Part shown: piece after piece, positions 1 through 31,747 of the stretch
Layout of the letters: the number at the start of each line of letters is the position of its first letter
Position numbering within the stretch: the first letter of the stretch is position 1
NCBI GenBank assembly: GCA_005191425.1
Contig: SUPR01000035.1
Span: forward strand, 984-32,983
Source of the DNA: Candidatus Helarchaeota ASGARD archaeon Hel_GB_B
Lineage (GTDB): Archaea > Asgardarchaeota > Lokiarchaeia > Helarchaeales > HEL-GB-B
DNA: 32,000 nt
Direction: 5' to 3'
The notes under the pieces: generated by a model
The model's database searches: none
Seen by the model: the letters and a program-made list of their open reading frames with translations, nothing else
Told to the model about the DNA's origin: nothing
Translations under genes and position numbers: made by a program

Positions 1-765
1 CAAAATATTTCACAACCAGCATATATTGATAATACACTTGCAACACAACTTCATCTTGATATTGGTGATAAACTAATTGCAACAAGCCAAAGTTCAGGAG
101 TATTCCTTCAGTTAAATATAGTAGGTGTTACTACGTCTCTTAGTTTAGGAATCTCAATCAGCGGCTTTGGTGGTATGGCATATACGACATTATACACTAT
201 GCAAGAATTATTAGCAACAGACTCAGTCCAGTATGTGATGTTAGAATTAGATGATTCTTCATATTCAGAAAGTGTGGCAAATGCAATAAGAGAGACCTAT
301 CCTAATGCGCAAGTAATAACTCAGCAAGAAGTCTTGGAAATGACCGATCAAATTCTAAATATAATCTTAGCTGTTCTATTAGGCATGGCTTCTATTTCAC
401 TTTTAGTCGGTGCAATAGGGATTATGAATACGACTATGACTTCAGTTCTTGAGAGAACTCGCGAAATTGGTATATTAAAGGCAATAGGCTCAAAAAGAAT
501 AAATATATTACAGGTATTTCTTACTGAAGCGTTTATTATTGCATTAATCGGTGGAATTTTAGGTTGTATTTCAAGTGTTGTCCTCGTAATAGGACTGACC
601 ACATTAGTTAAAAGTTTTATGGGTTTTCAAATGCCCTATGTCTTCGATACTTCAATTTTTATTGGAGGAATGGTATTAGCAATAGTAATTGGACTTATTT
701 CGGCTGCATACCCTTCTTGGAGGGCAAGTAGCGTTAAACCTGTCGAGGCTTTGAGATATGAATAA
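1..765 (+). CDS. MacB/FtsX-family ABC transporter permease (5'-partial, begins before the window)
   Basis: Frame is open from base 1 to TAA at 763-765. The C-terminal FtsX domain has the typical motif 'IGIMNTTMTSVLERTREIGILKAIG' and ends 'AAYPSWRASSVKPVEALRYE'. Confidence 0.93.
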   Translation, partial: QNISQPAYIDNTLATQLHLDIGDKLIATSQSSGVFLQLNIVGVTTSLSLGISISGFGGMAYTTLYTMQELLATDSVQYVMLELDDSSYSESVANAIRETYPNAQVITQQEVLEMTDQILNIILAVLLGMASISLLVGAIGIMNTTMTSVLERTREIGILKAIGSKRINILQVFLTEAFIIALIGGILGCISSVVLVIGLTTLVKSFMGFQMPYVFDTSIFIGGMVLAIVIGLISAAYPSWRASSVKPVEALRYE

Positions 766-840: not shown

Positions 841-1758
841 ATGGCAGACGCAATAAGATTAAGAAATATTTCAAAAGTATATGATTTAGGACCAATAAAG
901 GTACAAGCGCTAAGAAATGTGAATTTGGAAGTTAAAAAACAAGAATTTACAGCTATTATGGGCCCATCAGGTTCAGGTAAAACTACATTATTAAACATGA
1001 TTGGGGCATTAGATTATCCAACCAGTGGGAGAGTTTTTTTGGACGGAAATGATATTACTGATTATGATGAAGGCGAAATAACCTTTATTCGCTGTAAAAA
1101 AATCGGATTTATTTTTCAATTTTTCAATCTGGTCCCTTTATTAACGGCAAAAGAAAATGTAATGTTACCAATGCTATTCGCAGGAGATTTGACAGTAAAA
1201 GAGGCGGAAGTCCGGGCAGTTGAATTATTAACTGAAGTAGGTATTGGAGACAGAATAAATCATGCTCCTCATGAATTGTCTGGTGGTCAACAACAACGAG
1301 TTGCTATCGCAAGAGCATTTGCGAATAAACCTGCAGTAATACTTGCAGATGAGCCAACTGGTAATACGGACTTTAAAACTGGAGTTTCAATTTTAAATTT
1401 AATGAGAAAATTGAATAGAGAAGAGGGCCAGACCTTTTTATTAGTCACGCATGACCCTGGTATAGCTGGAATCGCCGATAGGGTCATTTATGTTATTGAT
1501 GGACATGTTCAGTCCACATGCCCCGATAGAGTATCTCCTCCATCAGATACTTTGGTGGAATATATAAAAATAAATAAACCTAAAGAATTAAAACGCTTAA
1601 AAAATTTTAAGCGGCAATTAAAGATTATCAAACGAGATTTAGCCTTATTTAAGGCAAGAAAAAATGAGATTGATTTTGTTCAATATCAATATATTAAAAA
1701 TGAATATTATAAAATGCTTAATGAAATTGAAAAAAAGACCAGGTGGTTAACAGCATGA
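841..1758 (+). CDS. ABC transporter ATP-binding protein, LolD/MacB family, with ~80-aa C-terminal helical extension
   Basis: Walker A GPSGSGKT, Q-loop 'IGFIFQFFNL', signature LSGGQQQR, Walker B ILADE, H-loop LVTH. Confidence 0.95.
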   Translation: MADAIRLRNISKVYDLGPIKVQALRNVNLEVKKQEFTAIMGPSGSGKTTLLNMIGALDYPTSGRVFLDGNDITDYDEGEITFIRCKKIGFIFQFFNLVPLLTAKENVMLPMLFAGDLTVKEAEVRAVELLTEVGIGDRINHAPHELSGGQQQRVAIARAFANKPAVILADEPTGNTDFKTGVSILNLMRKLNREEGQTFLLVTHDPGIAGIADRVIYVIDGHVQSTCPDRVSPPSDTLVEYIKINKPKELKRLKNFKRQLKIIKRDLALFKARKNEIDFVQYQYIKNEYYKMLNEIEKKTRWLTA

Positions 1759-4700
1759 AATTTAAGAAAAATTTGTTTTGCATAATAATATTGTTGGGTA
1801 TACTTATATCTTCATATGTAATTTCTATTAAATTTTCTCATTTACAGCCAGTTAATTTATACAATGATCATGGGAATAAAATCACAAATTTAGAAAATAA
1901 CATTCCAGAAAATGTTGAAATAACTAAAACAGAATCTATGACTGTAAACATAAACCCATTTGGTAAAATAATAGAAAAACGTACAACAGTTACATTTACT
2001 CTAAGAAACCTTGGAAATAAGAGAGTAACTTTTCAATTAAAAGACCGAGTCGAAAAAGCAGAACCTAGAACTTTTCAAATAATTCGAGGCAGCTTTAACG
2101 AGGAACCAAAAGTAATATTTATTGATAATGGAACTTATGGCTATATGTTATTTAAATTTCCAAATATTACTTTAGAAGCTAATTCTAGGAAAGAATTTGG
2201 TTACGTAGTCAAAACAAAAATAGAGGTACCTTATACTATCCATTCTACATTTTATATAAATAACACTAAAATTGAATTAAATGAATCTGAGGAAGACCCG
2301 AAAATTATAGCACCTATTGGGTCGAAAATTACTCAAGTAATTAATATACAAAGAGTAGATAAAGGGCTATTTGGGATAAATTCAATGGTACGGGCACCAA
2401 ATATTGTATTATTAACTGTAATATTACCCTACTCTGAGCGTGAAGAGGATATGGACATTTCTGAGCCTGAATATTCAAGTCCTCCAGTAATGGAAAATGC
2501 TCTCGGATTTATCCAGCAAATTTCATGGATAGTTTATTCTAATAATTATACAGTTAATTGGAGCGCAAAAATACTGAGTGGCGGGGGCTGGGGTATATTG
2601 GAACTCCAACCAATGATGATAGTAATAACAAAAGCGACTGACATGACCAGTACAGCTCTACAAGCATTAAACGGTGTATTGGGTCTTATAGCTGGACTAC
2701 AAGGTTATTGGATAGGACTGGTCGCTGATTCGCTAATTGAAGAGTTTATGACGCTCTCTTCCTATATGAATTATATATTTGACATTATGGCTATGGACTC
2801 AAGTATCATGAATATGGGTGTCTACTCGATGATAAATAACATGATTATTGCTCTTGTTGAGGCTAATATCGTCCGCCAGTTTTTGCAAGACAGTATAAGT
2901 ACTATAGATGGCGTAATTGATGATATCGGTGGGTCGTTCCCACTCGATGCAATTAATTTAATTAATGTCCAGACTACATTAAATAATTCTCTTGATTACA
3001 TTACAGATATGGAGCGGAGGATAACCGCGTCATTTGGGGCGCAAATTATTCAGTTGCTAGGGAACCCTGCAGTCATAACAATTAGGAAAATGCCGATAAT
3101 GGACATAATATATCTTGATTATCTATTTATCAATGCAACTGCATCCGAGTTGTCTAATAACCAGACTGATTTTTACACAAAAATTGATATTGAAAATTTG
3201 ACTGCAATTAATGGGTTGGTCAATTTAAGTCGGACATATGAATTTAAATTAGGCAATTCTACTGGGTTCTTCTATCTGTTAGACCAAGTTTTTGGCAGAC
3301 CAATATTTAAAGAGACTAATGTTTCAGGTTCTCCTAATTCAACAGCACCCGGAATTTATACTTCATATTTAAGTATGTTAACCCCTAATGAAGGGTCATT
3401 CTGGTACACTTTAGGGAATTTAAGTAGGTCTATCGCAACTCAGCTATTGTTGTTAAATTCAAGTTTTGGTGGAAAATATAAGATTTTATTAAAAAATCAA
3501 AGTGCAAATGTGAATATCTCGTCTAAAGACCCATTTATCTTAGAAACTGGTTTTACAGGCTTAAATAGTTTTATGAATAGCCTTAAAAGTATTCAGAAAA
3601 AATATCAATCTCCATATGGAAATCCACCTGATGTATATATTCCAGAAATTAACTCGAATTATAATAATATGCCTTTTGGAGGTAATCTTTCAGAAGAAAC
3701 CCTAAATGTCTTGAATAACATGAGTTTTAATACTCAAATGCAGATTTATATGGAACCAAATTTGTATATCCGAAATACACTAAATTTTTCTCTACCAATT
3801 GGAAACTTAAGTAATCTTACAAGTAATTTTACTGGTACTGTCCCGATAGAAGTAGCCGACTATGTATTAGAAGACGGGACAAAACCGAATTGGGTAAATT
3901 CCACCATAAACGGAGTTCAATTCAATGATGCTACTGATCCTATTTTCAAGAGATTTATTGTTAATGGCATTTGTAATTTTAGTAAAAGTGTTTTAGTACC
4001 TGGTAAAAAATTAATGACTAATTTTAGGATAAATAGTACGGACGCTCGTATTGACCTTATCATATACGATGAAAATAATACTATAAAAAAATATAATTTA
4101 CAAGATCTTATGTCAAATATTAATGATTGGAATAATTTCACATGGGATTTGTCGAATCCCAATTATTGGAACTATTATGATAATAATTTTGATAATGACC
4201 ATATAACTAAGTTTGAATTTATTATAAATTCTACAAATCCTGTGGCATTTGATATTGACTATATGAATATGTCAAGGACTGTGCTACCATATCCAAATAA
4301 TATTACGTTATATGAAGGGTATGTCTACAGCAATGGAATAGAACTATTTGGAAATGTAACTAAATATGAGCAACTAAACGGTGGGCTAGAAATTCCGTAC
4401 TCTTTTATTGCTGATGTCTGCGGCGGATCTGATAACGAGGTAGTCGCTGGATCAACTGATGAAAATATTTATGTATTCAATGGGACGACTGGTAATCAAT
4501 TATGGAATTTGACACTTAATGGACATATTACAAACATGTTTGTCCAAGATTTTATTAAAGGCGGTAAAAATGAAATAATTTTAGGTTTAGACAATGGTTC
4601 TATTTTAGTATTAAATGGTACTGGTAGTCTTATCTGGAACTATTCGTTTTCAAATACAATAAATTATATGGCGATAAGTGATATTAATAACGATTCACTG

Positions 4701-7610
4701 GACGAATTGGTTGTGGGTGCAGATGATACCATTTTAGTAGCACTAAATAATTCTGGAAATTACTTGTGGAACGACTCTTTGAAGAATACGATAACTGATA
4801 TAAAAATTGTGGATATAAATGGTGATAATAAAAGTGAAATCTTGACCAGTTCACTTGCAAATTCTGTAAAATGTTTTAATGGGTCAACTGGTGAATTTAT
4901 ATGGAAAAAACGTTTCTATGATGATGTATTAAAAATTGCTATAGGAAATTTTACCGGAGATAAATATAAAGACATTGTAGCATATGTAAAACCAGACTAC
5001 CTGTATGCATTTTCGGGGTATAATTTATCAGATATTTGGGAAATAGAAACGAATGCTTATATAATCAATTTAGATACAATTAAAGTGCCACTCAAAAAAG
5101 ATAATATTGTCATAAGTACAGCAACAAATCTTACTTCATATTTCGGAAATAATGGAACAGAACGATGGACAGTCCCAACAAATTCTATAATTACGACAAT
5201 GAAAGTCTTTGACATAGATTCTGATTCTGCTGATGAAGTAATGATTGGCGCTAATTATCATAATATATCTGCATATTTGGATAATGGGAGCTTACTTTGG
5301 GAATATAGAGCAGATAGTGCTGTTAAAAATATTGGCATTGGTTATATTGACAATAATTCTGTTTATGATATAGCATTAGGCGAAAGCAATAATAAAATAC
5401 AAGCTGTAAATCTAACTTCATTTACTAAATTATGGGGAAATACTTTAGGAAAATGGATTTTATCGTTTAAATTTATAAGGACGAGCAAATATATTTCAAT
5501 ATATTATAATCTTCCCGAGCCTATTACCCATCTTATGCAAACTATTGGTGTTAACCTCCCTGAAATGACTTCTCTAGCAAATATCGGTAGCTTATCATCA
5601 TTGAGTGGTACAAATGTAAATGGACTAGACTCATTATCTCAAATTTCAATGAATCCGAGCGACCTGGAAAATTTTGGAATCAATGTTTCATTCACAGGAA
5701 TTGGTCTAGTAAACATTTTATTGTTAGAACTTGATCTTATGATCTATATTCAAGAACTTAGCGATATTTCAAATTATGAAAAAGCTTTTACAGGGGCCCC
5801 TGATGTAAAATATTATGGAGATAATTCAGCACCCGATATTGATGTTTTTGTTAACGATACCGTTGATTCACCGAATTGGGAATATGTACAATGTGATATA
5901 AGAAATAATGAAGAAGATCCAATTACGGTACAATATTTTGCGGTTACTTTAAAATATAACAACTATTCAATCCCTAAAGATCGAATAATAATCCAAGGAT
6001 ACAATGTAACTTCTAGTAAATGGATTGACTTGAACAGTAGTGTTATTAAAGACTTTGATTGGAATAGTATTGGGTTAAATTATGTCAATGGTAGCGTAGT
6101 GTTTAAAAATTTTATAGAAATTGATACTGATGAACGGAAATTAGTTACTACCGATTGGAAATTAAGACAATTACGTATTAAAATCAATATTTCCGGACTT
6201 TCACCATCAAACTTAACAATAAATATTTGGTCTGATTGTATTCAGGATTTGGACGGAGTTACTATGCAACCAATTAGTAGTTCTATCACGATCAACGCTA
6301 TTTATCCTACTGTACTTGTATTTCAAATACCTTCCATAGAAATACCTCCGAACCCCCAAGTAAATATCTTAAGGATAATTCTAACATCACCAGTTACTTG
6401 GGGTCTTGTTTTAGCTGCTGGTATTATTGGTTTTGTTTATCAAAATTTAAATAAACGTGAAAAATTCAGATATAATAAAATTGCCACCAATAAAATGCTG
6501 AAATGGCTCAAGAAAGAACAAAATAAATGGGACGCTGCACTACTAAATGGGACTATTAATATTAAAAAATATTCAAGCCTTAACCGCCTGAGACTTAGAT
6601 TGATGCACGATTTTAGACAGCCTAAAGAGAAATTTCTGCAGTTTGTATTTAAATATAATAGTATAATTGAGTCTTATAAAATTATGAAAGATACATCCCA
6701 TATCTTCCTCTTAAAAGGATTCTGGCGAGATATTGATCAAAGATCTAAATTAGCTTTAGTCTTAGACCGAATTGTTCATTATATTTTATTACCCGTAAAT
6801 TACATTCTAATTGGATTATTCTGGATTCCAAAAGGAATATACAAACTGTTAGTAAAAATCTTCGTCAAAAAACAAAAAATAATCGTCAAGAAAAAAGCAT
6901 TAATCAGTGATAATGACTTAGACCAAAATGAAATAGAAATAAAACCACCTGTAAAAACTATAAGTCAAAGTAGTGGAAATGAAGAGCTTGATAATGCTTT
7001 ATCTAAATATTTAAAAGATGTTAGGTCTAGCAAACAAAAAAAGAAAAAGAAGTCAAACAAAAAATGGCACGGAAAAACAATGAACGATGGAGGTACCACT
7101 AATGATAATAAATTACCTGAACTAGAAACAAAAATTGGTAAAACATTTTATTTTATAGCTGAAAATAAATATATTGGCAGAAAAGTGAACGAAATTGCTA
7201 AATTTCTAGGTGTATCTATTCATGAGGTAATATTTTATTTGATAAAACTATATGAACAAGGCCTAATCTCCCAAATAAAAGAAGGTAAAACCCTTGGTGA
7301 AGATATCTGGGATGTAAGTTCTAGATTTAAAAAAGTCGACCCTGAACTCGAAAAAATTATTGAAAAAACAAAATACCTCTATGATGAAGTTTCCGAAGGT
7401 ATAATAATAACTGAAGCAGAAATAAAAAATGAAATAGACGAAACAAAAGAAGAAATTGAGGCTGAGCGCGTGCCTGAAAAAAATATAAATATAAAGGACA
7501 TAGAAATTCTAATGCCAAAACCAGTGAAAGTAGATATAGATTTACCTGAAATTAAAGAAAAAGAAACTAAAGACTTACCAACCGCAAAAATAGAAGAAAT
7601 TAAAGAGTGA
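1755..7610 (+). CDS. Giant (1951 aa) multidomain membrane-anchored surface protein with FG-GAP/PQQ-like beta-propeller and C-terminal winged helix
   Basis: ATG 1755 overlaps the ATPase TGA (ATGA), so it is preferred over GTG 1743. N-terminal signal/anchor MKFKKNLFCIIILLGILISSYVI; eight propeller blades at about 4407-5450; TM segment at about 6366-6440; wHTH-like segment at about 7128-7285. Confidence 0.85.
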   Translation: MKFKKNLFCIIILLGILISSYVISIKFSHLQPVNLYNDHGNKITNLENNIPENVEITKTESMTVNINPFGKIIEKRTTVTFTLRNLGNKRVTFQLKDRVEKAEPRTFQIIRGSFNEEPKVIFIDNGTYGYMLFKFPNITLEANSRKEFGYVVKTKIEVPYTIHSTFYINNTKIELNESEEDPKIIAPIGSKITQVINIQRVDKGLFGINSMVRAPNIVLLTVILPYSEREEDMDISEPEYSSPPVMENALGFIQQISWIVYSNNYTVNWSAKILSGGGWGILELQPMMIVITKATDMTSTALQALNGVLGLIAGLQGYWIGLVADSLIEEFMTLSSYMNYIFDIMAMDSSIMNMGVYSMINNMIIALVEANIVRQFLQDSISTIDGVIDDIGGSFPLDAINLINVQTTLNNSLDYITDMERRITASFGAQIIQLLGNPAVITIRKMPIMDIIYLDYLFINATASELSNNQTDFYTKIDIENLTAINGLVNLSRTYEFKLGNSTGFFYLLDQVFGRPIFKETNVSGSPNSTAPGIYTSYLSMLTPNEGSFWYTLGNLSRSIATQLLLLNSSFGGKYKILLKNQSANVNISSKDPFILETGFTGLNSFMNSLKSIQKKYQSPYGNPPDVYIPEINSNYNNMPFGGNLSEETLNVLNNMSFNTQMQIYMEPNLYIRNTLNFSLPIGNLSNLTSNFTGTVPIEVADYVLEDGTKPNWVNSTINGVQFNDATDPIFKRFIVNGICNFSKSVLVPGKKLMTNFRINSTDARIDLIIYDENNTIKKYNLQDLMSNINDWNNFTWDLSNPNYWNYYDNNFDNDHITKFEFIINSTNPVAFDIDYMNMSRTVLPYPNNITLYEGYVYSNGIELFGNVTKYEQLNGGLEIPYSFIADVCGGSDNEVVAGSTDENIYVFNGTTGNQLWNLTLNGHITNMFVQDFIKGGKNEIILGLDNGSILVLNGTGSLIWNYSFSNTINYMAISDINNDSLDELVVGADDTILVALNNSGNYLWNDSLKNTITDIKIVDINGDNKSEILTSSLANSVKCFNGSTGEFIWKKRFYDDVLKIAIGNFTGDKYKDIVAYVKPDYLYAFSGYNLSDIWEIETNAYIINLDTIKVPLKKDNIVISTATNLTSYFGNNGTERWTVPTNSIITTMKVFDIDSDSADEVMIGANYHNISAYLDNGSLLWEYRADSAVKNIGIGYIDNNSVYDIALGESNNKIQAVNLTSFTKLWGNTLGKWILSFKFIRTSKYISIYYNLPEPITHLMQTIGVNLPEMTSLANIGSLSSLSGTNVNGLDSLSQISMNPSDLENFGINVSFTGIGLVNILLLELDLMIYIQELSDISNYEKAFTGAPDVKYYGDNSAPDIDVFVNDTVDSPNWEYVQCDIRNNEEDPITVQYFAVTLKYNNYSIPKDRIIIQGYNVTSSKWIDLNSSVIKDFDWNSIGLNYVNGSVVFKNFIEIDTDERKLVTTDWKLRQLRIKINISGLSPSNLTINIWSDCIQDLDGVTMQPISSSITINAIYPTVLVFQIPSIEIPPNPQVNILRIILTSPVTWGLVLAAGIIGFVYQNLNKREKFRYNKIATNKMLKWLKKEQNKWDAALLNGTINIKKYSSLNRLRLRLMHDFRQPKEKFLQFVFKYNSIIESYKIMKDTSHIFLLKGFWRDIDQRSKLALVLDRIVHYILLPVNYILIGLFWIPKGIYKLLVKIFVKKQKIIVKKKALISDNDLDQNEIEIKPPVKTISQSSGNEELDNALSKYLKDVRSSKQKKKKKSNKKWHGKTMNDGGTTNDNKLPELETKIGKTFYFIAENKYIGRKVNEIAKFLGVSIHEVIFYLIKLYEQGLISQIKEGKTLGEDIWDVSSRFKKVDPELEKIIEKTKYLYDEVSEGIIITEAEIKNEIDETKEEIEAERVPEKNINIKDIEILMPKPVKVDIDLPEIKEKETKDLPTAKIEEIKE
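4407..5450 (+). repeat. Eight ~43-aa beta-propeller blades (FG-GAP-like Ca-binding DxNxD..E motif plus terminal Trp)
   Basis: Blades begin IADVCGGSDNEVV, VQDFIKGGKNEII, ISDINNDSLDELV, IVDINGDNKSEIL, IGNFTGDKYKDIV, DTIKVPLKKDNIV, VFDIDSDSADEVM, IGYIDNNSVYDIA. Each ends with an (L/I/R)W motif. Confidence 0.85.
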
Positions 7611-7618
7611 AACTCGGT

Positions 7619-8419
7619 CTATACAATTAAATAATTGTCAAATTCAGTTCTTTGTCCTAATCTTTTTTTCCTCAATTTTCTTGAATATGTATAATTAATT
7701 TTTTTAATGAGGACATCTTGTTCATTTTTTTTACCAGTAACAATTTCTAATTTTGAAGGAGTTATATACCCTTTTTTAAAATCAATTATAAGACTTTCAC
7801 CAGAATAACCTCTATCTGGTAATTTTCCTACTACATTCACGCCCAAGACTGGGACTCTATTCTCTAATGCTCTAGCTTTTAAATAAATATGCCAATTTTC
7901 AACGCCATCAGAACGAATCATTACAGGGGAAAATAATATATCTGCACCTTTTAAGACCAATTTACGGGGGGTCTCAGGGAAAGTCATATCAAAACAAATC
8001 AAAATACCCAGTTTACCCAATTTTGTATCGAAAACTTTTAGTTCTCCCCCAGGTTGAAAATACTTTTTCTCAAATAAATATAAGTGCTGCTTCTGCTGAA
8101 TTCCAATTCTTTCCCCTTTTGAATTAAATAGAGATGATGTGATCACCAGGATATTTCCTGACCTCTGCCAAATAGCCCCACCTATTATATAAATACCAAA
8201 TTCTCTGGCAAAATTACTCAATGCTTTATTACTAATACCATTTAGCTCTTCTGGATCATTTTTAACCGTTCCATCAAAATAATTCCATCTCTCCGGTAGA
8301 CATGCTATATCAGCTCCAAGATCACTTGCTTTTTTCAATTGTTCCCCTATTTTTTTGATTGTAATCTCTTTATCATTATAAATTTTTGACTGAATTGCCG
8401 CTATTGTTATTTCTTCCAA
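7619..8419 (-). CDS. Carbon-nitrogen hydrolase (nitrilase superfamily)
   Basis: Catalytic Glu-Lys-Cys triad motifs: 'CLPE', 'QQKQHLY', 'ICFDMTFPE'; also 'ARALENRVPV'. TTG start. Confidence 0.9.
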   Translation of the reverse strand: MEEITIAAIQSKIYNDKEITIKKIGEQLKKASDLGADIACLPERWNYFDGTVKNDPEELNGISNKALSNFAREFGIYIIGGAIWQRSGNILVITSSLFNSKGERIGIQQKQHLYLFEKKYFQPGGELKVFDTKLGKLGILICFDMTFPETPRKLVLKGADILFSPVMIRSDGVENWHIYLKARALENRVPVLGVNVVGKLPDRGYSGESLIIDFKKGYITPSKLEIVTGKKNEQDVLIKKINYTYSRKLRKKRLGQRTEFDNYLIV

Positions 8420-8513: not shown

Positions 8514-9137
8514 ATGGAAGAACAAATCGCGGTCAAAGGAAATAATAAATCTAAAAAGTCTTCAAAGAAAAACAAAAATAATAAAAATAATTTAGAAATT
8601 GAAAAAAATAGAAAATATTGGATTTATAGAGGACTTGGTATTGGTGGTGGTGTTCTTGCATTAATAACTTTATTTTTACCTTGGTATCAAGTAATAGGGA
8701 GTGTACTTTTAACGATAACTCCTATATATATATATTATAATGGATATTATATGTATTTTTGGGATTATTATGTGGCAATTAACATAGATTATGGTTTTCT
8801 GGTCATAATAATCGCAATGGATATTTGTTTAGCATTAATAATATTATCTACTATATACAGCCTAATTAAACTTTCACGAGCCCCAAGCTCTATGATAATG
8901 ACCACAATTATTTTATCATTTCTCTTTTTTTCAATTCCAGTTGCAGTCATGTCTATTCTATCTAATTCATTTCCGTTTTTTGGGTTTGATGGGGTCAATT
9001 TATGGGGGTTTACAATTGGTTGGTTTTTATTAATTCCCGCAATGATTTTAAGTATGTTCTTTAGAAAACTCGTGATAAATAAAAAAGAAAAAATACAAAA
9101 AGAGTGGAAAGAAAAAGTAAAAGAAATGCAAGATTAA
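8514..9137 (+). CDS. Hypothetical 4-TM membrane protein (FLPW motif)
   Basis: 207-aa ORF with Lys-rich termini and four hydrophobic segments; 'LALITLFLPWY' ends TM1. Confidence 0.75.
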   Translation: MEEQIAVKGNNKSKKSSKKNKNNKNNLEIEKNRKYWIYRGLGIGGGVLALITLFLPWYQVIGSVLLTITPIYIYYNGYYMYFWDYYVAINIDYGFLVIIIAMDICLALIILSTIYSLIKLSRAPSSMIMTTIILSFLFFSIPVAVMSILSNSFPFFGFDGVNLWGFTIGWFLLIPAMILSMFFRKLVINKKEKIQKEWKEKVKEMQD

Positions 9138-10216: not shown

Positions 10217-11320
10217 TTAAATGAACCTTAACATTTCATTCTGGCTTTTAATCATTAATTCCGTATTCAAACCTGATGGCAGTTCGAGTCTTGTATTTAA
10301 AAGTCCAAAATGCTCTAAAACAATTTTTGCAGCAGCTGCAATATCTTCTAAATTAAGCGAAACATTCGAATAGCCACGTTTTTTTTCTCTCTCTTGTTTC
10401 ATCTTTTTTAATACATCTGCCATTTTGTCCACAATTTCAAAATCAAGTTGATTTCTTTTTGCAAAATAAACAATGTTTTTAATATCTTCATTTGTAAAAT
10501 TTGGGACGGTGGTCGAAAGATAATTAATTAAATTATTATCGTCAATTTCACATTCCACAGCCTGCCATTTATTGATTGCGGAAGTCCTTTTTAAATAAAT
10601 AATCTCTATTGGGATGCCTATCTTTTCTAACAAATTAACAATCAAATCGCTTAATTCTCTTATTTTTAAAATTATATATAAATGAAGTCCATATGGTTTA
10701 TGCTCTTGCTGCATATATAATCCACGGGTCTGTAAACTTGAAATAATATTTACTCTTATTTTTTTGATCTCATAATTTGGTTGATCCAATGAACTTTCTA
10801 ATAATATCAAATTACCCTTTTTAGAATCGTAATGTCGCACCGTAAAGCCCTTAATACCCTTTTTCGAGCTATATATAAATTTTTTCAGTCCTCTAATAGT
10901 TGGTTTTATATTATATTCTTCTAAATCTGTCTCATCAATAGTCACATAATCATATTCACGTCCAATACACAACCTAATTGCATCCAATTGGAGTGTGTAA
11001 ATTGTACCTAATACCTCTTGAATTGCTTTATTGATCGGAAACACTTCTTTTATTAATATATCTAACCCTGCAGTTATAAGTTCCCATGGAATTATTTCTC
11101 CTCCTATATAATTTTTTTCGGGTGCCTCAGATGCTGTGCATTCTATCTCATAATCTACTAACTCTTTTTTAATGATAAGCGTAGTTGTACCTTTTTTTGT
11201 TTCATAAATTACAACACTTAAATTTTTGTTGATAACTGCCCTAAATTCTGTTGCAAAACTATTTTTGTTTTCATTTCGGTCAAAAAAATTATTCACTCTT
11301 TCTTTCTTATGACTATACAA
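10217..11320 (-). CDS. Hypothetical soluble protein (367 aa), possible AAA+ lid-like C-terminus
   Basis: Long ORF with plausible protein composition; TTG start is uncertain; no Walker motifs seen. Confidence 0.65.
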   Translation of the reverse strand: MYSHKKERVNNFFDRNENKNSFATEFRAVINKNLSVVIYETKKGTTTLIIKKELVDYEIECTASEAPEKNYIGGEIIPWELITAGLDILIKEVFPINKAIQEVLGTIYTLQLDAIRLCIGREYDYVTIDETDLEEYNIKPTIRGLKKFIYSSKKGIKGFTVRHYDSKKGNLILLESSLDQPNYEIKKIRVNIISSLQTRGLYMQQEHKPYGLHLYIILKIRELSDLIVNLLEKIGIPIEIIYLKRTSAINKWQAVECEIDDNNLINYLSTTVPNFTNEDIKNIVYFAKRNQLDFEIVDKMADVLKKMKQEREKKRGYSNVSLNLEDIAAAAKIVLEHFGLLNTRLELPSGLNTELMIKSQNEMLRFI

Positions 11321-13919: not shown

Positions 13920-14495
13920 TTAAATTATGGAACTAAGAATCGCCGTGTACAAGTCTTCATCATACATTCTAATCCCTTTTAGATACATTGCGGTCTCTAG
14001 CAAGAAAAATGCAATTATTATAACAACAATTCCCAGACCTAAATACACATAACAAGAAGATGGCTTATAAAAGTTTTTTGTAGATAAATAAATTAATGAA
14101 AAACCACCTAATGCTATAAAAATAAATGATGATGCAAGAATTCCTTCAATAATAAATTGGTCGTTTAATGACCTTAAGAAAATTATCGGTTCAGGTGGAT
14201 TTCCTTGTCCATAACCCATGGGAATTTCTCGATATGCTCCTATTATGAAGTACATCCCACCGCTAAAAAAATAGAAGAATAGTATAAAAACAAAAACCAT
14301 TACTAAATACCTTGAAGTCAAAAAGCTGGGTATTTTTACTCCTACAAAAGGGTTATTTAACCTTATATTTGGCTTTCTAATAATTTTCTGAGGCCATGGT
14401 AGGTGGGCATTCCAAAATGATTTTGATAAAAGTGTTTGAGTTATACTTGTTGCGGATTTCTTGGAAATTTTTTTCGTTTGCTTTTTCTTTGTCAT
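13920..14495 (-). CDS. OSTC/DC2-like oligosaccharyltransferase subunit (OST3/OST6 TM-domain family)
   Basis: Three TM segments, no thioredoxin domain. '[31 protein letters not shown]' matches human OSTC '[32 protein letters not shown]' (human sequence recalled from memory). Confidence 0.82.
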   Translation of the reverse strand: [191 protein letters not shown]

Positions 14496-23051: not shown

Positions 23052-26000
23052 TTGTCAGTATTTGAAAGGATGAAGAGGTCTTTAAGTAAGGTATTCCATA
23101 AACCTACAATTACAATCGATAAAACTAACATTTTACTTTATATTACACTTATCCTTGTTTTTATTATATCACTTATTATTAGGTTAATGCCATTATTTTA
23201 CACTGATGCTGAGATTCATGCTTTAGACCCATTTGTACAATACAGGTCTGCAAGATATATTTTAAATAATGGCTTTTTTAGCTTTATGAATTGGTATGAT
23301 GACCAATCTTGGTATCCTTATGGTAAATATATGGGGGGCTCGATATTTCCGGGCACTCCTCTTTCCGGGATTACTACTTTTTATTTTTTGAATTTCATTG
23401 GTATCCCTGTCAGCTTCTTAGAGGCATGCGCAGTTACACCTGCGATAATGGGTGCTGTGACTTGTTTAATGATGTATTTTTTAGGGAAAGTACTTGCTAA
23501 TAAAAAGGTCGGTCTGATGGCTGCCTTTTTCATGATGGTATTACCTGGCCATATCCAGCGTTCTTATTGTGGTTTTTTTGATAACGAAGCTCTTGGAATT
23601 CTTGCAATAGTGGCGACCTTAACTTTTTTCGTTCATTCCTTGAAAAAAGGGTCTATCTTTACCGGGATACTGGCTGGGATTAGTTTAGGTGTCTTATCGA
23701 GCACCTGGGGTTCTTGGAATTATATGTATGCTTTATTGTCGTTAACTGCATTTCTTTTAGTACTTATAAATAAATATTCGACAAGATTACTTGTAAGTTT
23801 TGGTCTGACCGTTGGAATTGGGTGGATAATGTGTACGGTTGTACCAAGAAATGGGCTCGATGCATTTACAGGCTCCTATGCCCTAATTTCCTTAAGTATA
23901 TTAGCGCTCCTATTCTTTATTGAACTATGGGGGCGGTTTAAAAGGTCTAATTTTTATTTCTTTAAAAATATTAGTGAAATGTTTAATTGGAAAAGAGTTC
24001 TGATCTATTCAGGAGTTGCAATTTTAACGATTGTAATAATTTTTGTTTCCACTGGAATACTTCAATATATCCTTACAGCATTTGTTAACACAAGTTTCTT
24101 TAAAGGTCTGGGGAATAGGGTCATTGCTATAATAAACCCATTATATGTCTCTCAAGCGACTAGGTCTGTTGCAGAACACATTCCATCTGCTTGGGGTGTC
24201 TATTATTTCAACTTCAGTTTCTTTCTCCTATTGATGCCTGTTGGTATTTTCTTTTTATTTAAACGGTTTCGTGAAGAAGATGTTTTAATGATCTTGTTTG
24301 GGGTCACAATGGTCTATTTTTCAAGTTCTTATATTCGACTTCAACTTCTACTAGCCCCAGCAATTTCGATAATTGGAGCTTTTGGGCTTGTATTTCTTTT
24401 TAGACCTTTTTCTCTCATATTTAAAGAAAAATTTATTATCGGAAGGAGAAAAAAGAGATTGTCCAAAATTGTAGGAAAAGAAATCGGGTTTGGAGTGATG
24501 GCATTCTTTATTTGGATGCTATTATACCCTACAATGCATGGCATTTGGAATGGTTATGCAAATATTGGTCGAACACCTGGTATGCCTGACGACATGAAGG
24601 AAGGATATACTTGGATGCGTACTGTATTACCTCAAGGAACTGTAGTTATGTCTTGGTGGGACTATGGATATAGGATCACGACCATGGGTGAAAAAGTAAC
24701 TGTAGACGATAATGCAACAAGTAATTCAACTCAAATGGGTATGGTAGGTAGGATGTTTATGTCAACTGATGAAACTACTGCTGTAGAAATATGTAGAAAG
24801 TATAACGTAAGTTATGTCATGGTACGCTGGGGTTATTATCAGAGTTATCTTGCTGGAGATGATGGAAAGTGGCAGTGGATGTTACGAATAGCTTCACAGA
24901 CGTTAAAAAACACTAAATATAAAATTAATGTTAGTAGCATTTGGAGTGAAGATGAATATAAAGTAACTGGAAACTTCTTTAAGACAATTTTGTGGAAAAT
25001 GCTGATTACTAATGAACCTTACATTGATGCCACAAAGACTTATTCAACAGCCCAAGGAGGTTCAATATCCGGGGCTGATATAATCAATAGTAAAGGTGGC
25101 TTCTACAAGCCATTATGGACAAGATTAGCAAACCCAAATAATAATGAGCAATTTAAGACAGTAGAGGGTCATAATTGGGATTATTATAACCCAATACCTA
25201 TGGGTACAAAGACGAGCCTACCTCTTGACGCCTCAACGACAATCGTAGATGTAGATACTTTCCCAGGAGACGGGGATTCCAATGATATGTTGAAGTTTTT
25301 CGATACAGCATTTTTTTCTAAATATAGGTTAATGAAAGTATATCGTGTGAATTATGATAAAGCGGACTTAAGATTTGATATATCGGATTTAAGATTATAT
25401 AACAATAGCATAGCATATATAAGAATAAATAATACTGGTAAAAGGATATTTGACATAGATTCTATAAAAATCAATTCAATGGAACCTACATATAAATTTA
25501 AAATAGGTGGTAATGGAACAGCGGATTTAAAAAATATATATCCAGGAAAATTCATAGATATACGTGCTTCAGAGTTTAGTACTATTGAGTACAACCAGTC
25601 TTATGATGTTGAAATAGTGATAAAAGATTCTTCAATATCTTCAAATACCCTGACAAAGACTGAAGAAATTAATGCAGAGAAAGCATTGAATTATAATATG
25701 TCTGTGCCCGAGTCTAAAGTATATTTATTTAGTAATAATACAATTGGTTTTATAGTAAAAAATACGGGTGAGGATTACTTTAGGTTGCATGGACTAACGC
25801 TTGATTCTTATGTAGCAAGTGGTTTTATTTCAAATGCTACTTCGATAGTAGTAGCGCCTGGTGAAACTCAGAAAATATATATAGACTCAACATCAATGAG
25901 TCCGTCCTTAAATTTAAATTTGGGCGATTTCTACAATAAAATGACAATAACAACAGATACTCCCAGTAATTTAAGTGTTGAAATTGATAATCTCACAGTG

Positions 26001-27974
26001 ATTTCGGGTTCTTATTGTGGTAATATCCAAAACGTTTCTGTATGGGCAAATGAAACCATTAATTTCAATTTAAAGAATACTGGACTTTACAATTTTACGA
26101 TCGATCATATTAGGATAAATAATTTAATCTGGGATAATTATATAACGCCGAATCCTCACAATATGTTTTTAGCTAAAGGAGATATTCAAAGTTTTGAGTT
26201 TAAAGTGACACATGATATTTGGAATTTAAACGATTCAAATATAGTAAAAATAAATGTCTCAATAAATTTACCGGTAAATATGACGATTGACGAAGAATCC
26301 GCGAAATTATATGGTGAGTATAAAGTTGTTAATGATTGGATTAATTATAATCTAGCGGTACAGACTAAAAAAGCATATTCTAATGAATCAATATTAGTAA
26401 ATGTGACGAATTGGGGTTTGAAAACAATAGAAATTTCCGATTTTAAGGTATCAACAAATTCAACGTCCAATTGGATTGAGACCACAAATTTTACGCGAGT
26501 CCCCAATGGGCCAAATGAACTAGGAGTAAATGAATCTGCTCTATTCTTGATAAAATCTAATTTAAATTTAAATTATAGCGATTTAGTAAAAGTAAAGGTA
26601 GAAACATTTGAAGGTGCTTGGAATGAAACAAAACAGTTAGAATTTACGAGGCGGTGCGGAAATATTACTATTAGTTGGACTAAGGCATATCAAAATAATG
26701 ATACAGTATTTGTCAATTTAACAAATACTGGTGATATAAATATAACAATTAAAAATATCTATTTTAACGGTAATTTATCTGCCAGCTTTATACCGATTGA
26801 TGTCAAATATAATGAACTATCCATGTCTCACTGCACAATAATGCCTGGGCAATACCAGTTATTTAAAGCGAAAATCGAATCGAGTCAAATGTCATCAATA
26901 GTCCCAGGAGGTACTCTTATATTAAACGCTACAACATGGGAAGGTGCAACTGATGCAAAACAAGTAACATGGGAATATAACGTCTGGTTTAAGAAAATTT
27001 ATGCATATTTAAACGATACTATAAAATTAGTAGTCCAAAATATAGGGGCACAAAAAGTAACAATAAATAACTTTTATGTTAATAGCTCATTGTGCAATTG
27101 GACATTAATATCGGGAAGTTTAACTTTAGATGTTAATGATAAAGCCTCGTTCTTATTGAATACTACTTATTTGGTGAACAGTTCGATTGACTTACAATTT
27201 AGCGATTTAATAAATGTGACTGTAGTTGCTAATTATACGTCCAATTTAGATAATATTAGTTTTACTTATAACAATTTATTTGTTTTAGATACTGATTATA
27301 ATATAACAATTCTTCAATATTGGCCTAATACATATGCATTTGACAATGGTACTTTAACAGACGCTAATGACACAGTGTGTGTATCTATAATGAATACAGG
27401 AGCTTATAACATAACAATTTCTAATATTACAGTTAATGGTATCTTGCGAAACTTTTTGATAATTAGTAATTCGCCTTATAATTTTACAATCAAGCCGTAT
27501 CAAATTTTAATGGTAAGGAATTCGACTAACTTAGGGATTGACTTAAATGCGACAGAGAAAATTAAAATAAATGTTTCGACAAATGCAACGGTAGGTACAA
27601 AATTAATTTGGGACAATATTTCTGTAATTGTATGTTATACTCATTTCAACACGACATTATTGTATAAAAATAATGAATCTGTGGTGGTCAATGGGACTGT
27701 TGATACTTTATATTTAAATCTCACAAATTTTGGCAATGAATCATTAACATTGAGCCAAGGAAGTATACTTATAAATAATTCAGTGGACTTTATGTATTAT
27801 TATGGCCAGCAAGCAGGGATTTCAACTATTGTATTGAGACCTGGTGAAAATATAAAAATTAGTATTATAATTACGAACTTGGGACCATTCACTTATCCAT
27901 TACCAGAACCCGGCGATAAGGTAAAAGTCAATTTAAGCTGGAAGACAGGTGATATCTATCTTAATGTAATATAA
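23052..27974 (+). CDS. aglB: Oligosaccharyltransferase catalytic subunit STT3/AglB with ~870-aa C-terminal repeat extension
   Basis: Multi-TM N-terminal half. Motifs HALDP, WYPYG, FDNE (aa 177-179 for DNE), SVAEH (aa 372), WWDYG (aa 535; nt 24654-24668), DNAT, DDGKWQWMLRIA (aa 603). Confidence 0.95.
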   Translation: MSVFERMKRSLSKVFHKPTITIDKTNILLYITLILVFIISLIIRLMPLFYTDAEIHALDPFVQYRSARYILNNGFFSFMNWYDDQSWYPYGKYMGGSIFPGTPLSGITTFYFLNFIGIPVSFLEACAVTPAIMGAVTCLMMYFLGKVLANKKVGLMAAFFMMVLPGHIQRSYCGFFDNEALGILAIVATLTFFVHSLKKGSIFTGILAGISLGVLSSTWGSWNYMYALLSLTAFLLVLINKYSTRLLVSFGLTVGIGWIMCTVVPRNGLDAFTGSYALISLSILALLFFIELWGRFKRSNFYFFKNISEMFNWKRVLIYSGVAILTIVIIFVSTGILQYILTAFVNTSFFKGLGNRVIAIINPLYVSQATRSVAEHIPSAWGVYYFNFSFFLLLMPVGIFFLFKRFREEDVLMILFGVTMVYFSSSYIRLQLLLAPAISIIGAFGLVFLFRPFSLIFKEKFIIGRRKKRLSKIVGKEIGFGVMAFFIWMLLYPTMHGIWNGYANIGRTPGMPDDMKEGYTWMRTVLPQGTVVMSWWDYGYRITTMGEKVTVDDNATSNSTQMGMVGRMFMSTDETTAVEICRKYNVSYVMVRWGYYQSYLAGDDGKWQWMLRIASQTLKNTKYKINVSSIWSEDEYKVTGNFFKTILWKMLITNEPYIDATKTYSTAQGGSISGADIINSKGGFYKPLWTRLANPNNNEQFKTVEGHNWDYYNPIPMGTKTSLPLDASTTIVDVDTFPGDGDSNDMLKFFDTAFFSKYRLMKVYRVNYDKADLRFDISDLRLYNNSIAYIRINNTGKRIFDIDSIKINSMEPTYKFKIGGNGTADLKNIYPGKFIDIRASEFSTIEYNQSYDVEIVIKDSSISSNTLTKTEEINAEKALNYNMSVPESKVYLFSNNTIGFIVKNTGEDYFRLHGLTLDSYVASGFISNATSIVVAPGETQKIYIDSTSMSPSLNLNLGDFYNKMTITTDTPSNLSVEIDNLTVISGSYCGNIQNVSVWANETINFNLKNTGLYNFTIDHIRINNLIWDNYITPNPHNMFLAKGDIQSFEFKVTHDIWNLNDSNIVKINVSINLPVNMTIDEESAKLYGEYKVVNDWINYNLAVQTKKAYSNESILVNVTNWGLKTIEISDFKVSTNSTSNWIETTNFTRVPNGPNELGVNESALFLIKSNLNLNYSDLVKVKVETFEGAWNETKQLEFTRRCGNITISWTKAYQNNDTVFVNLTNTGDINITIKNIYFNGNLSASFIPIDVKYNELSMSHCTIMPGQYQLFKAKIESSQMSSIVPGGTLILNATTWEGATDAKQVTWEYNVWFKKIYAYLNDTIKLVVQNIGAQKVTINNFYVNSSLCNWTLISGSLTLDVNDKASFLLNTTYLVNSSIDLQFSDLINVTVVANYTSNLDNISFTYNNLFVLDTDYNITILQYWPNTYAFDNGTLTDANDTVCVSIMNTGAYNITISNITVNGILRNFLIISNSPYNFTIKPYQILMVRNSTNLGIDLNATEKIKINVSTNATVGTKLIWDNISVIVCYTHFNTTLLYKNNESVVVNGTVDTLYLNLTNFGNESLTLSQGSILINNSVDFMYYYGQQAGISTIVLRPGENIKISIIITNLGPFTYPLPEPGDKVKVNLSWKTGDIYLNVI
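25368..27971 (+). repeat. Eight tandem ~105-118-aa beta-sandwich (Ig/CARDB-like) protein repeats in AglB
   Basis: Recurring '(A)Y.N.(T/S)(I/V).(V/F).(L/V).N(T/W/I/F)G...(I/L).I..I.(I/V)N'. The N-x-G Asn falls at nt 25431, 25761, 26076, 26409, 26724, 27039, 27393 and 27726 (spacings 110, 105, 111, 105, 105, 118, 111 codons). Confidence 0.85.
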
Positions 27975-28148: not shown

Positions 28149-28604
28149 TTATGAAATATCAAGATTGTAAAATTTTTTTAAAAGTTTTTTAATTGTTGTC
28201 ATAGCATTTTTTGCGATTTGGATGGCTTGTTCAGCATCTCTTTTTTTATAGAACTCAAGAGGTGAAATTACTCGTCTTGAGCGTAATCTAACATATCTAG
28301 TAAATGAATACTGCTCCATCAACCAATCTGTTTCCTTAATCATCTCTCTTAATTCATTTATTGTATCATTATTGACTCGCGTTATTATTTCTGAAATAAA
28401 TAGGCTTGTAGGGTCATGGTCATAGATTTGCGTTAGACCTTCTAATGCGAGTGCCGATTTCATTATTTTCTCCACGCATTGTTGGGAATCAAATACCGCT
28501 TTATGAAATCTGGACTCCCTCAGCTGCATTTCGGCAGATTTTAAATCTGATTCAGCTTCTTTTACTAATTTTATGGCAAAATCTTTTAATAATTCTGATG
28601 TCAA
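28149..28604 (-). CDS. HEPN domain protein (COG2250/sacsin-like)
   Basis: 'AESDLKSAEMQL..SRFHKAVFDSQQCVEKIMKSAL...HD', 'FTRY', 'DAEQAIQIA'. GAGGT upstream of the TTG start. Confidence 0.88.
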   Translation of the reverse strand: MTSELLKDFAIKLVKEAESDLKSAEMQLRESRFHKAVFDSQQCVEKIMKSALALEGLTQIYDHDPTSLFISEIITRVNNDTINELREMIKETDWLMEQYSFTRYVRLRSRRVISPLEFYKKRDAEQAIQIAKNAMTTIKKLLKKFYNLDIS

Positions 28605-28609
28605 TAATA

Positions 28610-29089
28610 TTACCTCTGAATAAAAATTCCTGATCTTGGATATATCTTCAATTTCCCTGATTCAACTGCTCTAGTAATATAATCATGGCTTTCATCCACC
28701 AATTCCTCTCCAAAAATTATGTAATAACCAAGATATACGCCCAAATTAAATGGAAATAAATTTTCACACCCGAATTTAAAATCGTCCTCTGAAATTACAT
28801 ATGGGTCTATTTTTACAGAATATTTCCTCGATAATTCTCTACAAATAGTAAAAATAATTTCATTTAAATTTCTGTCCTCATAATTCAATATTATTAATAA
28901 GTCTAAATCACTGTCTGGATAATTTTCACCACGAATTCTAGAACCATATAATACAAGCGCTTTTAAATTCTCTCTTAATTTTAATTTTATTTCGGCATAA
29001 ATGTCCTTACTAATTTTTCTCAAAAATGGATCTAAAAGGTGTCTTTTAAATGTCCTATTATTCCTAATTTTTTTCATAATTAGTACCAA
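28610..29089 (-). CDS. Minimal nucleotidyltransferase (MNT), partner of HEPN
   Basis: 'VLYGSRIRGENYPDSDLDLLII' (GS-x10-DxD). Directly upstream of HEPN with a 5-nt gap. An alternative start is ATG 29077. Confidence 0.9.
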   Translation of the reverse strand: MVLIMKKIRNNRTFKRHLLDPFLRKISKDIYAEIKLKLRENLKALVLYGSRIRGENYPDSDLDLLIILNYEDRNLNEIIFTICRELSRKYSVKIDPYVISEDDFKFGCENLFPFNLGVYLGYYIIFGEELVDESHDYITRAVESGKLKIYPRSGIFIQR

Positions 29090-30980: not shown

Positions 30981-31747
30981 TCCAATTCTCCCATTTTCAC
31001 TGGATCTCCGCAATTATGACAATAATAAGCTCCTTCTAGCAATTCAGCTCCACATTTATCACAAATCAATTCTTGGCCACACCTGCTACAAAATATCTGT
31101 CCTTCGGAAACTTTTTCATGGCATGCTGGGCAAATTTTCTCTTTTTTTAATTTTTTTTCTTTAATATTAAAAGTTTTTACTTTTTCACCACAATTAGAAC
31201 AAAATTTAGCTCCGGGGACTATTGGTGCACCACATTTATCACAAATTAACTCTAAACCACAGTTAGGACAAATTTTATCGGTTTTTAAAATTTTGTTCCC
31301 ACATTTTGGGCATTTTAGATCTTTAATTATTTCATCTTCCTTAGTTTTTATGTCTCTTTCTTTTGTTTCATAAATAAATGGTTCTAAATCGCTCCAAAAA
31401 TCCACGCTGGTTACCTTTACCCTTGCTCTATCGCAATTATTACATCGAAATATTATTTTTTTACGTCTTCCATAATAATACCAATAAGCTTGAGGTGGTG
31501 GTAAATAGTGGGAAAAACCAGTTAAACTATCTTTATTTATTGCCCCACATAAATCACACATAAAGAAGGACTCCCTAACATCTTCAATCCAATCTTGTTT
31601 ATTACTAAAACTTAAAGATACCTTTTTAGTAGATTTACAAATAGGACATCTCATCGCTAATATTAAACTATCTCTTTTAGGTATTGCTTTTATGATTGAC
31701 ATTTTTTGGGACCCTTTACATTTTGGGCATATAAGTTTCTTCGTCAT
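30977..31747 (-). CDS. Multi-zinc-ribbon protein (12 CxxC motifs; two double-zinc-ribbon units)
   Basis: CPKC, CPIC, CDLC, CNNC, CPKC, CPNC, CDKC, CSNC, CPAC, CSRC, CDKC, CHNC. Confidence 0.85.
   Translation of the reverse strand: MTKKLICPKCKGSQKMSIIKAIPKRDSLILAMRCPICKSTKKVSLSFSNKQDWIEDVRESFFMCDLCGAINKDSLTGFSHYLPPPQAYWYYYGRRKKIIFRCNNCDRARVKVTSVDFWSDLEPFIYETKERDIKTKEDEIIKDLKCPKCGNKILKTDKICPNCGLELICDKCGAPIVPGAKFCSNCGEKVKTFNIKEKKLKKEKICPACHEKVSEGQIFCSRCGQELICDKCGAELLEGAYYCHNCGDPVKMGELD

Follow-up and report, generated by a model that had tools for sequence, protein, structure and literature searches.

Gene content and structure of the locus

The DNA examined here (hereafter the window) is a stretch of 32,000 nucleotides (nt) from the Candidatus Helarchaeota archaeon Hel_GB_B (assembly GCA_005191425.1, contig SUPR01000035.1, positions 984 to 32,983), and the present analysis concerns a giant gene at positions 1755-7610 of its forward strand. 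The gene is a single open reading frame (ORF) encoding 1,951 amino acids (aa) from the ATG at 1755, and it is preceded on the same strand by the genes of an FtsX/MacB-type permease and a MacB/LolD-type ATP-binding cassette (ABC) ATPase. We believe that the giant protein is fairly likely to be the extracytoplasmic accessory subunit of a three-gene type VII (MacB/FtsX) ABC mechanotransducer, and not a free-standing adhesin.

The 3' part of the permease gene lies within the window (1-765, +), where Pfam FtsX and MacB_PCD are matched; the complete gene begins 429 nt before the window and encodes 397 aa (L014:555-1748). The ATPase (841-1758, +; 305 aa) matches ABC_tran at E 1.2e-36, and its best NCBIfam matches are LolD, DevA and the MacB nucleotide-binding domain. 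Its TGA stop codon and the ATG of the giant gene overlap as ATGA. Residues are numbered here from an in-frame GTG at nt 1743 (protein P0001, 1,955 aa), the ATG at 1755 being residue 5. The ATG at 1755 is taken as the true start because of the overlap with the upstream stop and because M5 and K6 are invariant in four full-length homologues.

A sequence-only reading of this DNA, made before the present analysis, had assigned positions 1755-6440 to the protein and a transmembrane (TM) helix to its C-terminus. The single long ORF and its start were borne out, while the end at 6440 has to be abandoned, given that the ORF continues to 7610. Similarly, the TM helix exists (aa 1545-1566), but it is internal and is followed by about 390 residues. 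That reading missed both the translationally coupled ABC operon and the 390-residue tail, and both change the most likely function of the protein.

Full-length homologues show identities of 97, 70, 69, 57 and 32%, the last value being that of P0009 over its whole length. The close homologues are labelled as Helarchaeota metagenome-assembled genomes (MAGs), with one labelled Lokiarchaeota. In public databases they carry the name 'BamB family protein', which covers only the propeller domain described below and says nothing of function.

Conservation of the ABC operon

Nine loci were compared, namely the window, two close relatives (L001 and L002), a locus with a two-propeller giant (L006) and five loci with short relatives (L003, L004, L005, L007 and L008). 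In all nine, the gene immediately upstream of the family gene encodes an ABC ATPase of 297-326 aa. In seven of the eight loci other than the window the ATPase stop and the family start overlap by 4-8 nt, and in L004 they are separated by a 10-nt gap. An FtsX permease gene was called upstream of the ATPase in 7/9 loci, and MacB_PCD was also recorded except in L004, which is cut by its contig; L007 is cut by a contig end as well. Distant short relatives from other archaeal lineages are among these loci, and L003-L008 have different flanking genes. The differing flanks indicate that a conserved module of three genes, and not leftover synteny, underlies the arrangement.

The ATPases of the operon also carry a helical C-terminal extension of approximately 75-80 aa, found in 8/8 operon ATPases and corresponding to aa ~225-305 of the ATPase in the window. 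The genome encodes two further MacB-type ATPases, 53 and 49% identical and located in ORFs of 238 and 234 aa, and neither has such an extension. Its presence in the operon ATPases and its absence from these two paralogues suggest that the ATPase co-evolved with the third gene.

Membrane topology and glycosylation

The giant protein begins with a hydrophobic segment (1773-1832, +; aa 11-30) with a Kyte-Doolittle peak of 2.74 and three lysines before it. This segment, which confirms an N-terminal signal or anchor proposed earlier, may be either a signal anchor or a cleavable signal peptide; A-x-A-like sites follow the corresponding segment in several short relatives. The double anchoring suggested by the sequence-only reading is accordingly kept only as a possibility. 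The second transmembrane helix (TM2; 6375-6440, +; aa 1545-1566) has a hydropathy peak of 1.87. The 105 residues after TM2 contain 25 Lys/Arg, and another 25 are found in the 100 residues after a hydrophobic stretch at aa 1672-1700.

The distribution of N-x-S/T sequons is very uneven. The part between the first two hydrophobic segments holds 59 of them, against 24.6 +/- 4.3 in composition-preserving shuffles (z = 8), and the tail holds one; by position, 58 of the 60 sequons of the protein precede TM2, at aa 36-1487. From the sequon excess before TM2 and the basic regions after it, the part between aa 11-30 and TM2, propeller included, is read as extracellular and everything after TM2 as cytoplasmic. 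The propeller is thus placed outside, in agreement with the earlier description of the protein as exposed at the cell surface. The stretch at aa 1672-1700 was considered as a third spanning helix and rejected, since both of its flanks are strongly basic and sequon-poor.

The ectodomain is probably N-glycosylated, judging from its sequons. In the same window we found a gene for an AglB/STT3 oligosaccharyltransferase (23052-27974, +) of 1,640 aa, which extends about 1,000 residues past its catalytic core, as well as a small OST3/OST6-like membrane protein (13920-14495, -) that adjoins a CDP-archaeol synthase gene. The presence of both genes fits heavy N-glycosylation of the giant protein.

Short relatives and the stalk frame

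The family includes short proteins that share one layout, consisting of a signal segment, a beta domain of ~230 aa, 50-350 aa of helices, a second beta domain of ~150 aa, one TM helix and a short K/E-rich tail. No Pfam domain was found in the short forms. An AlphaFold2 (AF2) model of the short relative P0025, built with 28 sequences, reached a mean predicted local distance difference test (pLDDT) of 83.4 and a predicted TM-score (pTM) of 0.64. In this model a beta base is followed by five long helices and a second beta domain, and then by a TM helix and a cytoplasmic helix. The first and last of the long helices (residues 268-316 and 429-478) superpose on antiparallel coiled-coil hairpins in VIA-align searches, including those of moesin (root-mean-square deviation (rmsd) 1.5 A over 104 residues), the dynein stalk, SMC/Rad50 and chemoreceptors, while the inner helices match four-helix bundles. 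The model therefore indicates a 'there and back again' frame for the short relatives, in which an antiparallel helical stalk would rise from a beta base and carry a helical tip. NCBIfam matches of the helical parts of short relatives to MCE, SMC and Rad50 were rejected as coiled-coil composition. Sorting-signal-type matches (FILTED, GGIII-CTERM) in P0031 were likewise rejected, as a conserved cytoplasmic helix of 35-60 aa follows the TM helix.

Both ends of this frame are present in the giant. Its N-terminal beta 'base' domain (1902-2630, +; aa 54-296) is common to the short relatives and has a marginal fn3_5 match in Pfam; the profile of the short relatives matches P0001 at aa 54-341 with E 9.8e-35. 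The beta-rich N-terminal domain recognised in the sequence-only reading is supported by this match and by the beta-rich structure of the same region in the confident model of the relative. The C-terminal beta 'base' domain (5796-6353, +; aa 1352-1537), which had been noted before simply as a further beta domain, has its homologue in the second beta domain of the short relatives (hhalign against P0025 aa 487-657: probability 95.5%, E 1.5e-8). Within the order of the window, the short-family profile matches both ends of the same giant ORFs, at E 1e-33 to 1e-40 for the N-terminal part and ~1e-11 for the C-terminal part.

Two helical segments lie between these domains. The first (2640-3077, +; aa ~300-445) would be the outgoing stalk; at its start it can be aligned to the helix with which the stalk of the short family begins, and DSSP assigned helices to it at aa 303-395 and 400-439. 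The second belongs to a return segment (5451-5795, +; aa 1237-1351), kept in the homologues including P0016, with a short predicted helix at aa ~1319-1345 (residues 1042-1062 of the low-confidence model) that ends at the motif 'SNYEKAFTG' quoted earlier. The two helical regions proposed before are therefore both predicted, at low confidence only in the AF2 model (pLDDT <50). By homology, the giant is predicted to be the short frame in which about 1,000 residues, propeller included, replace the helical tip. The earlier idea of an insertion at the tip of a stalk receives its support in this way, by homology only and through the two end domains that the giant has in common with the short relatives.

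The base of the stalk resembles a eukaryotic fold. The N-terminal beta region of P0025 matches mu-homology domains (MHDs; AP2 mu2) with Z 13.3-13.7 over ~220 of ~250 residues at an rmsd of ~4.8 A, and the match always spans residues 31 to 639 (residues 31-265 plus ~630-639). Judging from this aligned range, a strand returning after the stalk and the C-terminal domain would complete the beta base of P0025. The MHDs of clathrin-adaptor mu subunits, COPI delta and muniscins are cytosolic, whereas the base described here is extracellular and discontinuous in sequence, and identity is limited to 10-13%. Archaeal DUF11-type surface proteins and ribophorin I match the P0025 base too. Kinship with the eukaryotic domains was thus not adopted; the likeness probably reflects a shared beta-sandwich arrangement, a fold resemblance that is notable in an Asgard setting.

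The head: an eight-bladed propeller and its companion modules

The propeller (4377-5450, +; aa 879-1236) is the sole part of the protein reaching Pfam thresholds, with PQQ_2 at 47.9 bits (cut-off 27.6), Beta-prop_CGLA at 48.5 and BBS2_Mid at 45.5. An AF2 model of P0001 aa 280-1345, built with six sequences, gave pLDDT 70-90 for the propeller and was not confident elsewhere. Its best Foldseek matches are the eight-bladed designs Cake8, Tako8 and Ika8 (TM-score by target 0.79-0.80), BamB (0.65-0.68) and YxaL. Acidic loops of the type D-x-[DN]-x-[DNG]-x3-[DE] were located by motif at aa 891, 936, 980, 1024, 1157 and 1201, and by periodicity at ~1069 and ~1113, giving eight positions with a period of ~44 aa; several to many loop residues are invariant among the homologues.

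The sequence-only reading had described an FG-GAP-like, calcium-binding propeller of eight blades. The propeller and the eight blades hold, and the acidic loops are conserved, while the FG-GAP profiles stay below their cut-offs in this region (FG-GAP 18.4 bits against 22.1, FG-GAP_3 18.0 bits against 26.9). The loops may bind calcium, as their sequence suggests. In comparison to known propellers, the one of the giant shares eight blades, a PQQ_2 match and the Foldseek match with the BamB/YxaL/PQQ type, but unlike BamB and YxaL it sits as a single inserted domain within an archaeal membrane protein of 1,951 aa. With the FG-GAP propellers of integrin alpha it shares loops of the calcium-site type (D-x-N-x-D), although the FG-GAP scores are sub-cut-off here.

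Two further modules precede the propeller. The first, a mixed alpha/beta module (3078-3827, +; aa 446-695), belongs to no known family and had no Pfam match in a sub-region scan at E <= 10. Conservation within the ectodomain peaks in this module, which contains the blocks of highest identity among the homologues and is partly shared with the two-propeller giant P0016. The second is beta-rich (3828-4337, +; aa 696-865) and is a candidate jelly-roll of the galactose-binding-like or carbohydrate-binding module (CBM) kind. Atlas language-model features of aa 696-865 point to clusters of Lyase_N, Exop_C, CBM30, CBM27 and CIA30 (0.90-0.92, with low shared counts of 127-146). The same residues gave no Pfam match (E <= 10) and no sequence match in the PDB with an eight-sequence profile, and their AF2 pLDDT is 23-52. 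The CBM-like module placed before at 3840-4275 is consequently retained as a weak language-model lead, with empty Pfam and PDB sequence searches and low AF2 confidence on the other side. Overall, profiles of aa 36-870, 1240-1545 and 690-865 found nothing meaningful among the PDB sequences, and the Pfam sub-region scans at E <= 10 yielded marginal fn3_5 and weak helix-turn-helix (HTH) matches only.

Comparison with the YhgE/Pip/EsaA proteins and the adhesin alternative

The ectodomains of EsaA, YueB and PIP have been described as 'there and back again' structures, with a helical stalk and a distinct tip domain (preprint 10.1101/2020.08.17.254201). A likeness of the giant to YhgE/Pip stalk proteins had been suggested earlier, and we examined membership and shape separately. 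The YhgE/Pip N-terminal domain TIGR03061 was matched neither by P0001, nor by its N half, nor by the short relatives (NCBIfam, E <= 10), and it was absent from the whole genome at E <= 0.01, while the control genomes of Bacillus subtilis, Lactococcus lactis and others do give matches. The heptad repeats of TIGR03057 had no match in P0001; in P0031 and P0023, two of the short relatives, their matches stayed sub-threshold (E 0.02; 15 bits, cut-off 18.6). The multi-pass C-terminal membrane domain (ABC-2 type) of YhgE/Pip is also missing, with one TM helix after the ectodomain and no ABC2_membrane match in Pfam.

In contrast to membership, the resemblance in shape was supported for the short form. 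The P0025 model matches Bacillota clusters of 649-665 aa in the ESM Atlas, at TM-scores of 0.49-0.54 over 415-436 residues. One of these clusters bears the name 'X-X-X-Leu-X-X-Gly heptad repeats', and a second comprises 1,723 members. Foldseek also matches P0025 to AFDB clusters with the same heptad-repeat name (E 1e-8 to 1e-17). None of the Bacillota clusters so matched has been characterised. An elongated out-and-back ectodomain was thus found in the P0025 model, and it extends to the giant only by homology of both end domains. There are also differences in design: the beta domain of EsaA sits at the tip, whereas the beta domains of the family described here would form a membrane-proximal base; and where YhgE/Pip proteins have a multi-pass C-terminal domain, the giant has one TM helix and an FtsX/MacB-type ABC pair as its gene partner.

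These comparisons bear on the question of whether the giant could be a free-standing adhesin, or a glycan or cell receptor, whose stalk simply displays the head, the ABC transporter being unrelated or co-regulated only. Such a role would agree with the large, extracellular and sequon-rich ectodomain, the integrin-like acidic loops of the propeller and the weak CBM-like lead. Moreover, the tips of EsaA, YueB and PIP, which have the same out-and-back stalk design, are used as receptors by phages (preprint 10.1101/2020.08.17.254201). However, the pairing of the ATPase and family genes is kept in 9/9 loci of distant lineages, mostly with overlapping stop and start codons and amid different flanks, and the special ATPase extension occurs only next to the family. 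Furthermore, short relatives without any head domain still keep the operon. We thus consider a free-standing adhesin unlikely.

The cytoplasmic tail

Directly after TM2 the giant has a basic juxtamembrane tail with the hydrophobic, hairpin-like segment at aa 1672-1700 (6441-6842, +), read as cytoplasmic given its basic flanks. This juxtamembrane region is kept in all giant forms, including P0013, P0015 and P0016, and either it or a cytoplasmic helix is conserved right after TM2 in all forms of the family. The conserved region after TM2, together with the ATPase extension, is the main argument for a physical three-part machine.

The same pair of features is relevant to another explanation of the operon, according to which the giant would be a cargo or client that the MacB-type pump extracts, inserts or turns over, as LolCDE does with lipoproteins. 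The genes are tightly linked, and type VII ABC systems do handle membrane-anchored proteins. On the other hand, a Sec-type N-terminal signal and a stop-transfer TM helix would suffice for insertion, no lipobox or sorting signal was seen in the protein, and the conserved cytoplasmic tail with its matching ATPase extension suggests a stable partnership. A cargo relation therefore appears highly improbable.

Further downstream lies a winged-helix-like module (7080-7382, +; aa ~1780-1880), after which an acidic tail runs to the stop codon at 7608-7610. The matches of the module are weak and sub-threshold (CadC E 0.054, PefI 0.5, PapI 0.73, FaeA 0.026, HTH_Crp_2 0.18), and it is conserved in the giants P0009, P0013, P0015 and P0018 (E 1e-22 to 1e-26). 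The short forms have no such module, the giant P0016 stops short of it, and P0015 carries a zinc ribbon behind it. The module is an add-on of the giant forms and not part of the family core.

One may ask whether the giant is instead a membrane-tethered one-component receptor, in which the head controls the winged-helix module through tethered DNA binding or proteolytic release and the ABC transporter acts as a co-sensor. A precedent for the latter is BceAB, which acts as co-sensor for BceS. The module, which is winged helix-turn-helix (wHTH)-like, and the juxtamembrane region are conserved in all giants with a full tail, the weak matches include the wHTH proteins CadC, PefI and PapI, and the type VII ABC operon is conserved. 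Yet the wHTH assignment is below threshold (E 0.05-0.7), and among the giants P0016 lacks the module and P0015 adds a zinc ribbon. In addition, the short relatives keep the operon without the module, so that this cannot be the core function of the family. On balance a one-component receptor seems rather improbable.

Distribution of the family

A profile of aa 36-870 searched against 1.84 billion representative proteins retrieved 30 proteins at E <= 0.001, comprising full-length giants, two-propeller giants of 2,160-2,265 aa and short proteins of 600-920 aa. The short proteins match the giant profile at the N-terminal beta domain only (E 1e-8 to 1e-15). The genome of the window holds one copy of the family. 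Among 400 genomes of the phylum, both profiles match only within the order of the window, in 7/7 genomes including its own and representing three families; outside this order one marginal match to the helical region was recorded. Short forms originate from MAGs labelled Nitrososphaeria and Bathyarchaeia, and their occurrence is patchy (3/76 genomes of one class). In a search of sequencing runs, the DNA was listed for marine-sediment and hydrothermal-vent metagenomes, and no RNA data set was listed.

Literature searches (Asgard and FG-GAP; MacB in archaea; YhgE/Pip and FtsX) found no description of the family. Its parts are of known kinds: the propeller, the ABC system of MacB type and a stalk design resembling that of Pip/EsaA. 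The partner family as such is uncharacterised, and these searches turned up no account of its being coupled to an archaeal type VII ABC system.

Other genes of the window and of the related loci

Two ORFs without a Pfam family, at 8514-9137 (+, 207 aa) and 10217-11320 (-, 367 aa) of the window, keep their positions in L001 and L002. At 28149-29089 (-) a HEPN protein gene is adjacent to a nucleotidyltransferase gene (Polbeta/NTP_transf_2), forming a pair typical of HEPN-MNT toxin-antitoxin-like systems. Close to the end of the window, a 217-aa ORF with an SBBP beta-propeller repeat (30327-30980, +) is followed on the opposite strand by a gene for a 256-aa protein with multiple double-zinc-ribbon domains (30977-31747, -). 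In L005, the locus of the short relative P0019, a gene for a ubiquitin-conjugating E2 enzyme (UQ_con) and a Cas12f/TnpB-like fragment are located nearby (L005:2210-2680 and 7905-8218).

Proposed function and significance

Type VII ABC systems such as MacAB, LolCDE and FtsEX-EnvC/PcsB transmit force to extracytoplasmic partners. They are understood mainly from bacteria, where outer partners serve in efflux, lipoprotein extraction and the activation of cell-wall hydrolases. To our knowledge, their role in archaea, which have no outer membrane and no murein, is largely unknown. For the giant, the analysis establishes the architecture, the propeller, the location outside the cell, the conserved operon and the homology that links both of its ends with the short family. 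Physical binding to the transporter, the ligand and the direction of signalling are inferred.

The mechanism we propose is modelled on type VII ABC systems that do outside work through a partner (MacA, EnvC, PcsB). The two terminal parts of the ectodomain would together form a beta base next to the membrane, and from it a helical stalk would run out and back, to be followed by one membrane helix and the conserved cytoplasmic tail. The tip of the stalk would carry a head made of the alpha/beta module, a possible lectin-like jelly-roll and the eight-bladed propeller with its calcium-type loops. With ATP used in the cytoplasm, the outer domain of the transporter may push the base of the stalk, and the ligand-binding head would thereby be moved or gated. 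In the reverse option, it is the transporter and the cytoplasmic tail, winged-helix module included, that would be informed of the state of the head.

Like the MacA-type membrane fusion proteins (MFPs) and EnvC/PcsB, the family is encoded with a MacB/FtsX-type permease and ATPase, combines extracytoplasmic beta domains with an antiparallel helical hairpin and is proposed to receive an ATP-driven movement. Unlike them, it has no HlyD, biotin-lipoyl, LytM or CHAP domains, possesses a conserved cytoplasmic tail, is possibly anchored at both ends and occurs in archaea, whose cells are without an outer membrane or peptidoglycan.

Several points weigh against the giant being such an accessory subunit. 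No sequence similarity to the type VII partners MFP/HlyD, EnvC and PcsB was detected, and no HlyD, biotin-lipoyl or beta-barrel Pfam matches were found in P0001 or 15 relatives. Binding to the transporter, as an inferred element, has to be counted here too, and genes may also be neighbours owing to a cargo relation or to co-regulation. L005 has no permease gene directly upstream. Concerning the stalk, the AF2 model of the giant itself has pLDDT <50 outside the propeller, so that the pairing of its helices rests on homology, and the helical part of the short relative is not alignable to that of the giant. Finally, the return helix of ~27 aa is short relative to the outgoing helix of ~140 aa, and the stalk may therefore be built differently.

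Going one step further, the system may be a 'motorised receptor', a reading that we regard as possible though doubtful. Here a glycosylated head of lectin and propeller would be permanently coupled to a MacB/FtsX-type ABC engine by way of the family-specific ATPase extension and a Pip/EsaA-like out-and-back stalk. If true, ATP hydrolysis would move or gate a binding module at the cell surface, and/or ligand capture would be reported to the winged-helix domain. It would also represent an undescribed class of type VII ABC partner, with the giant form only in the Helarchaeota-labelled Asgard order.

The present analysis defines a rare archaeal partner family with a conserved three-gene module and a short form amenable to modelling, and it puts right the public name 'BamB family protein'. 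The short form should lend itself to biochemistry and cryo-electron microscopy. Its likeness in shape to a large uncharacterised group of Bacillota proteins suggests a wider class of stalked membrane proteins awaiting a function. Within this family, one Asgard order has turned the partner into a glycoprotein of about 2,000 residues with a propeller head and a DNA-binding-like cytoplasmic tail.

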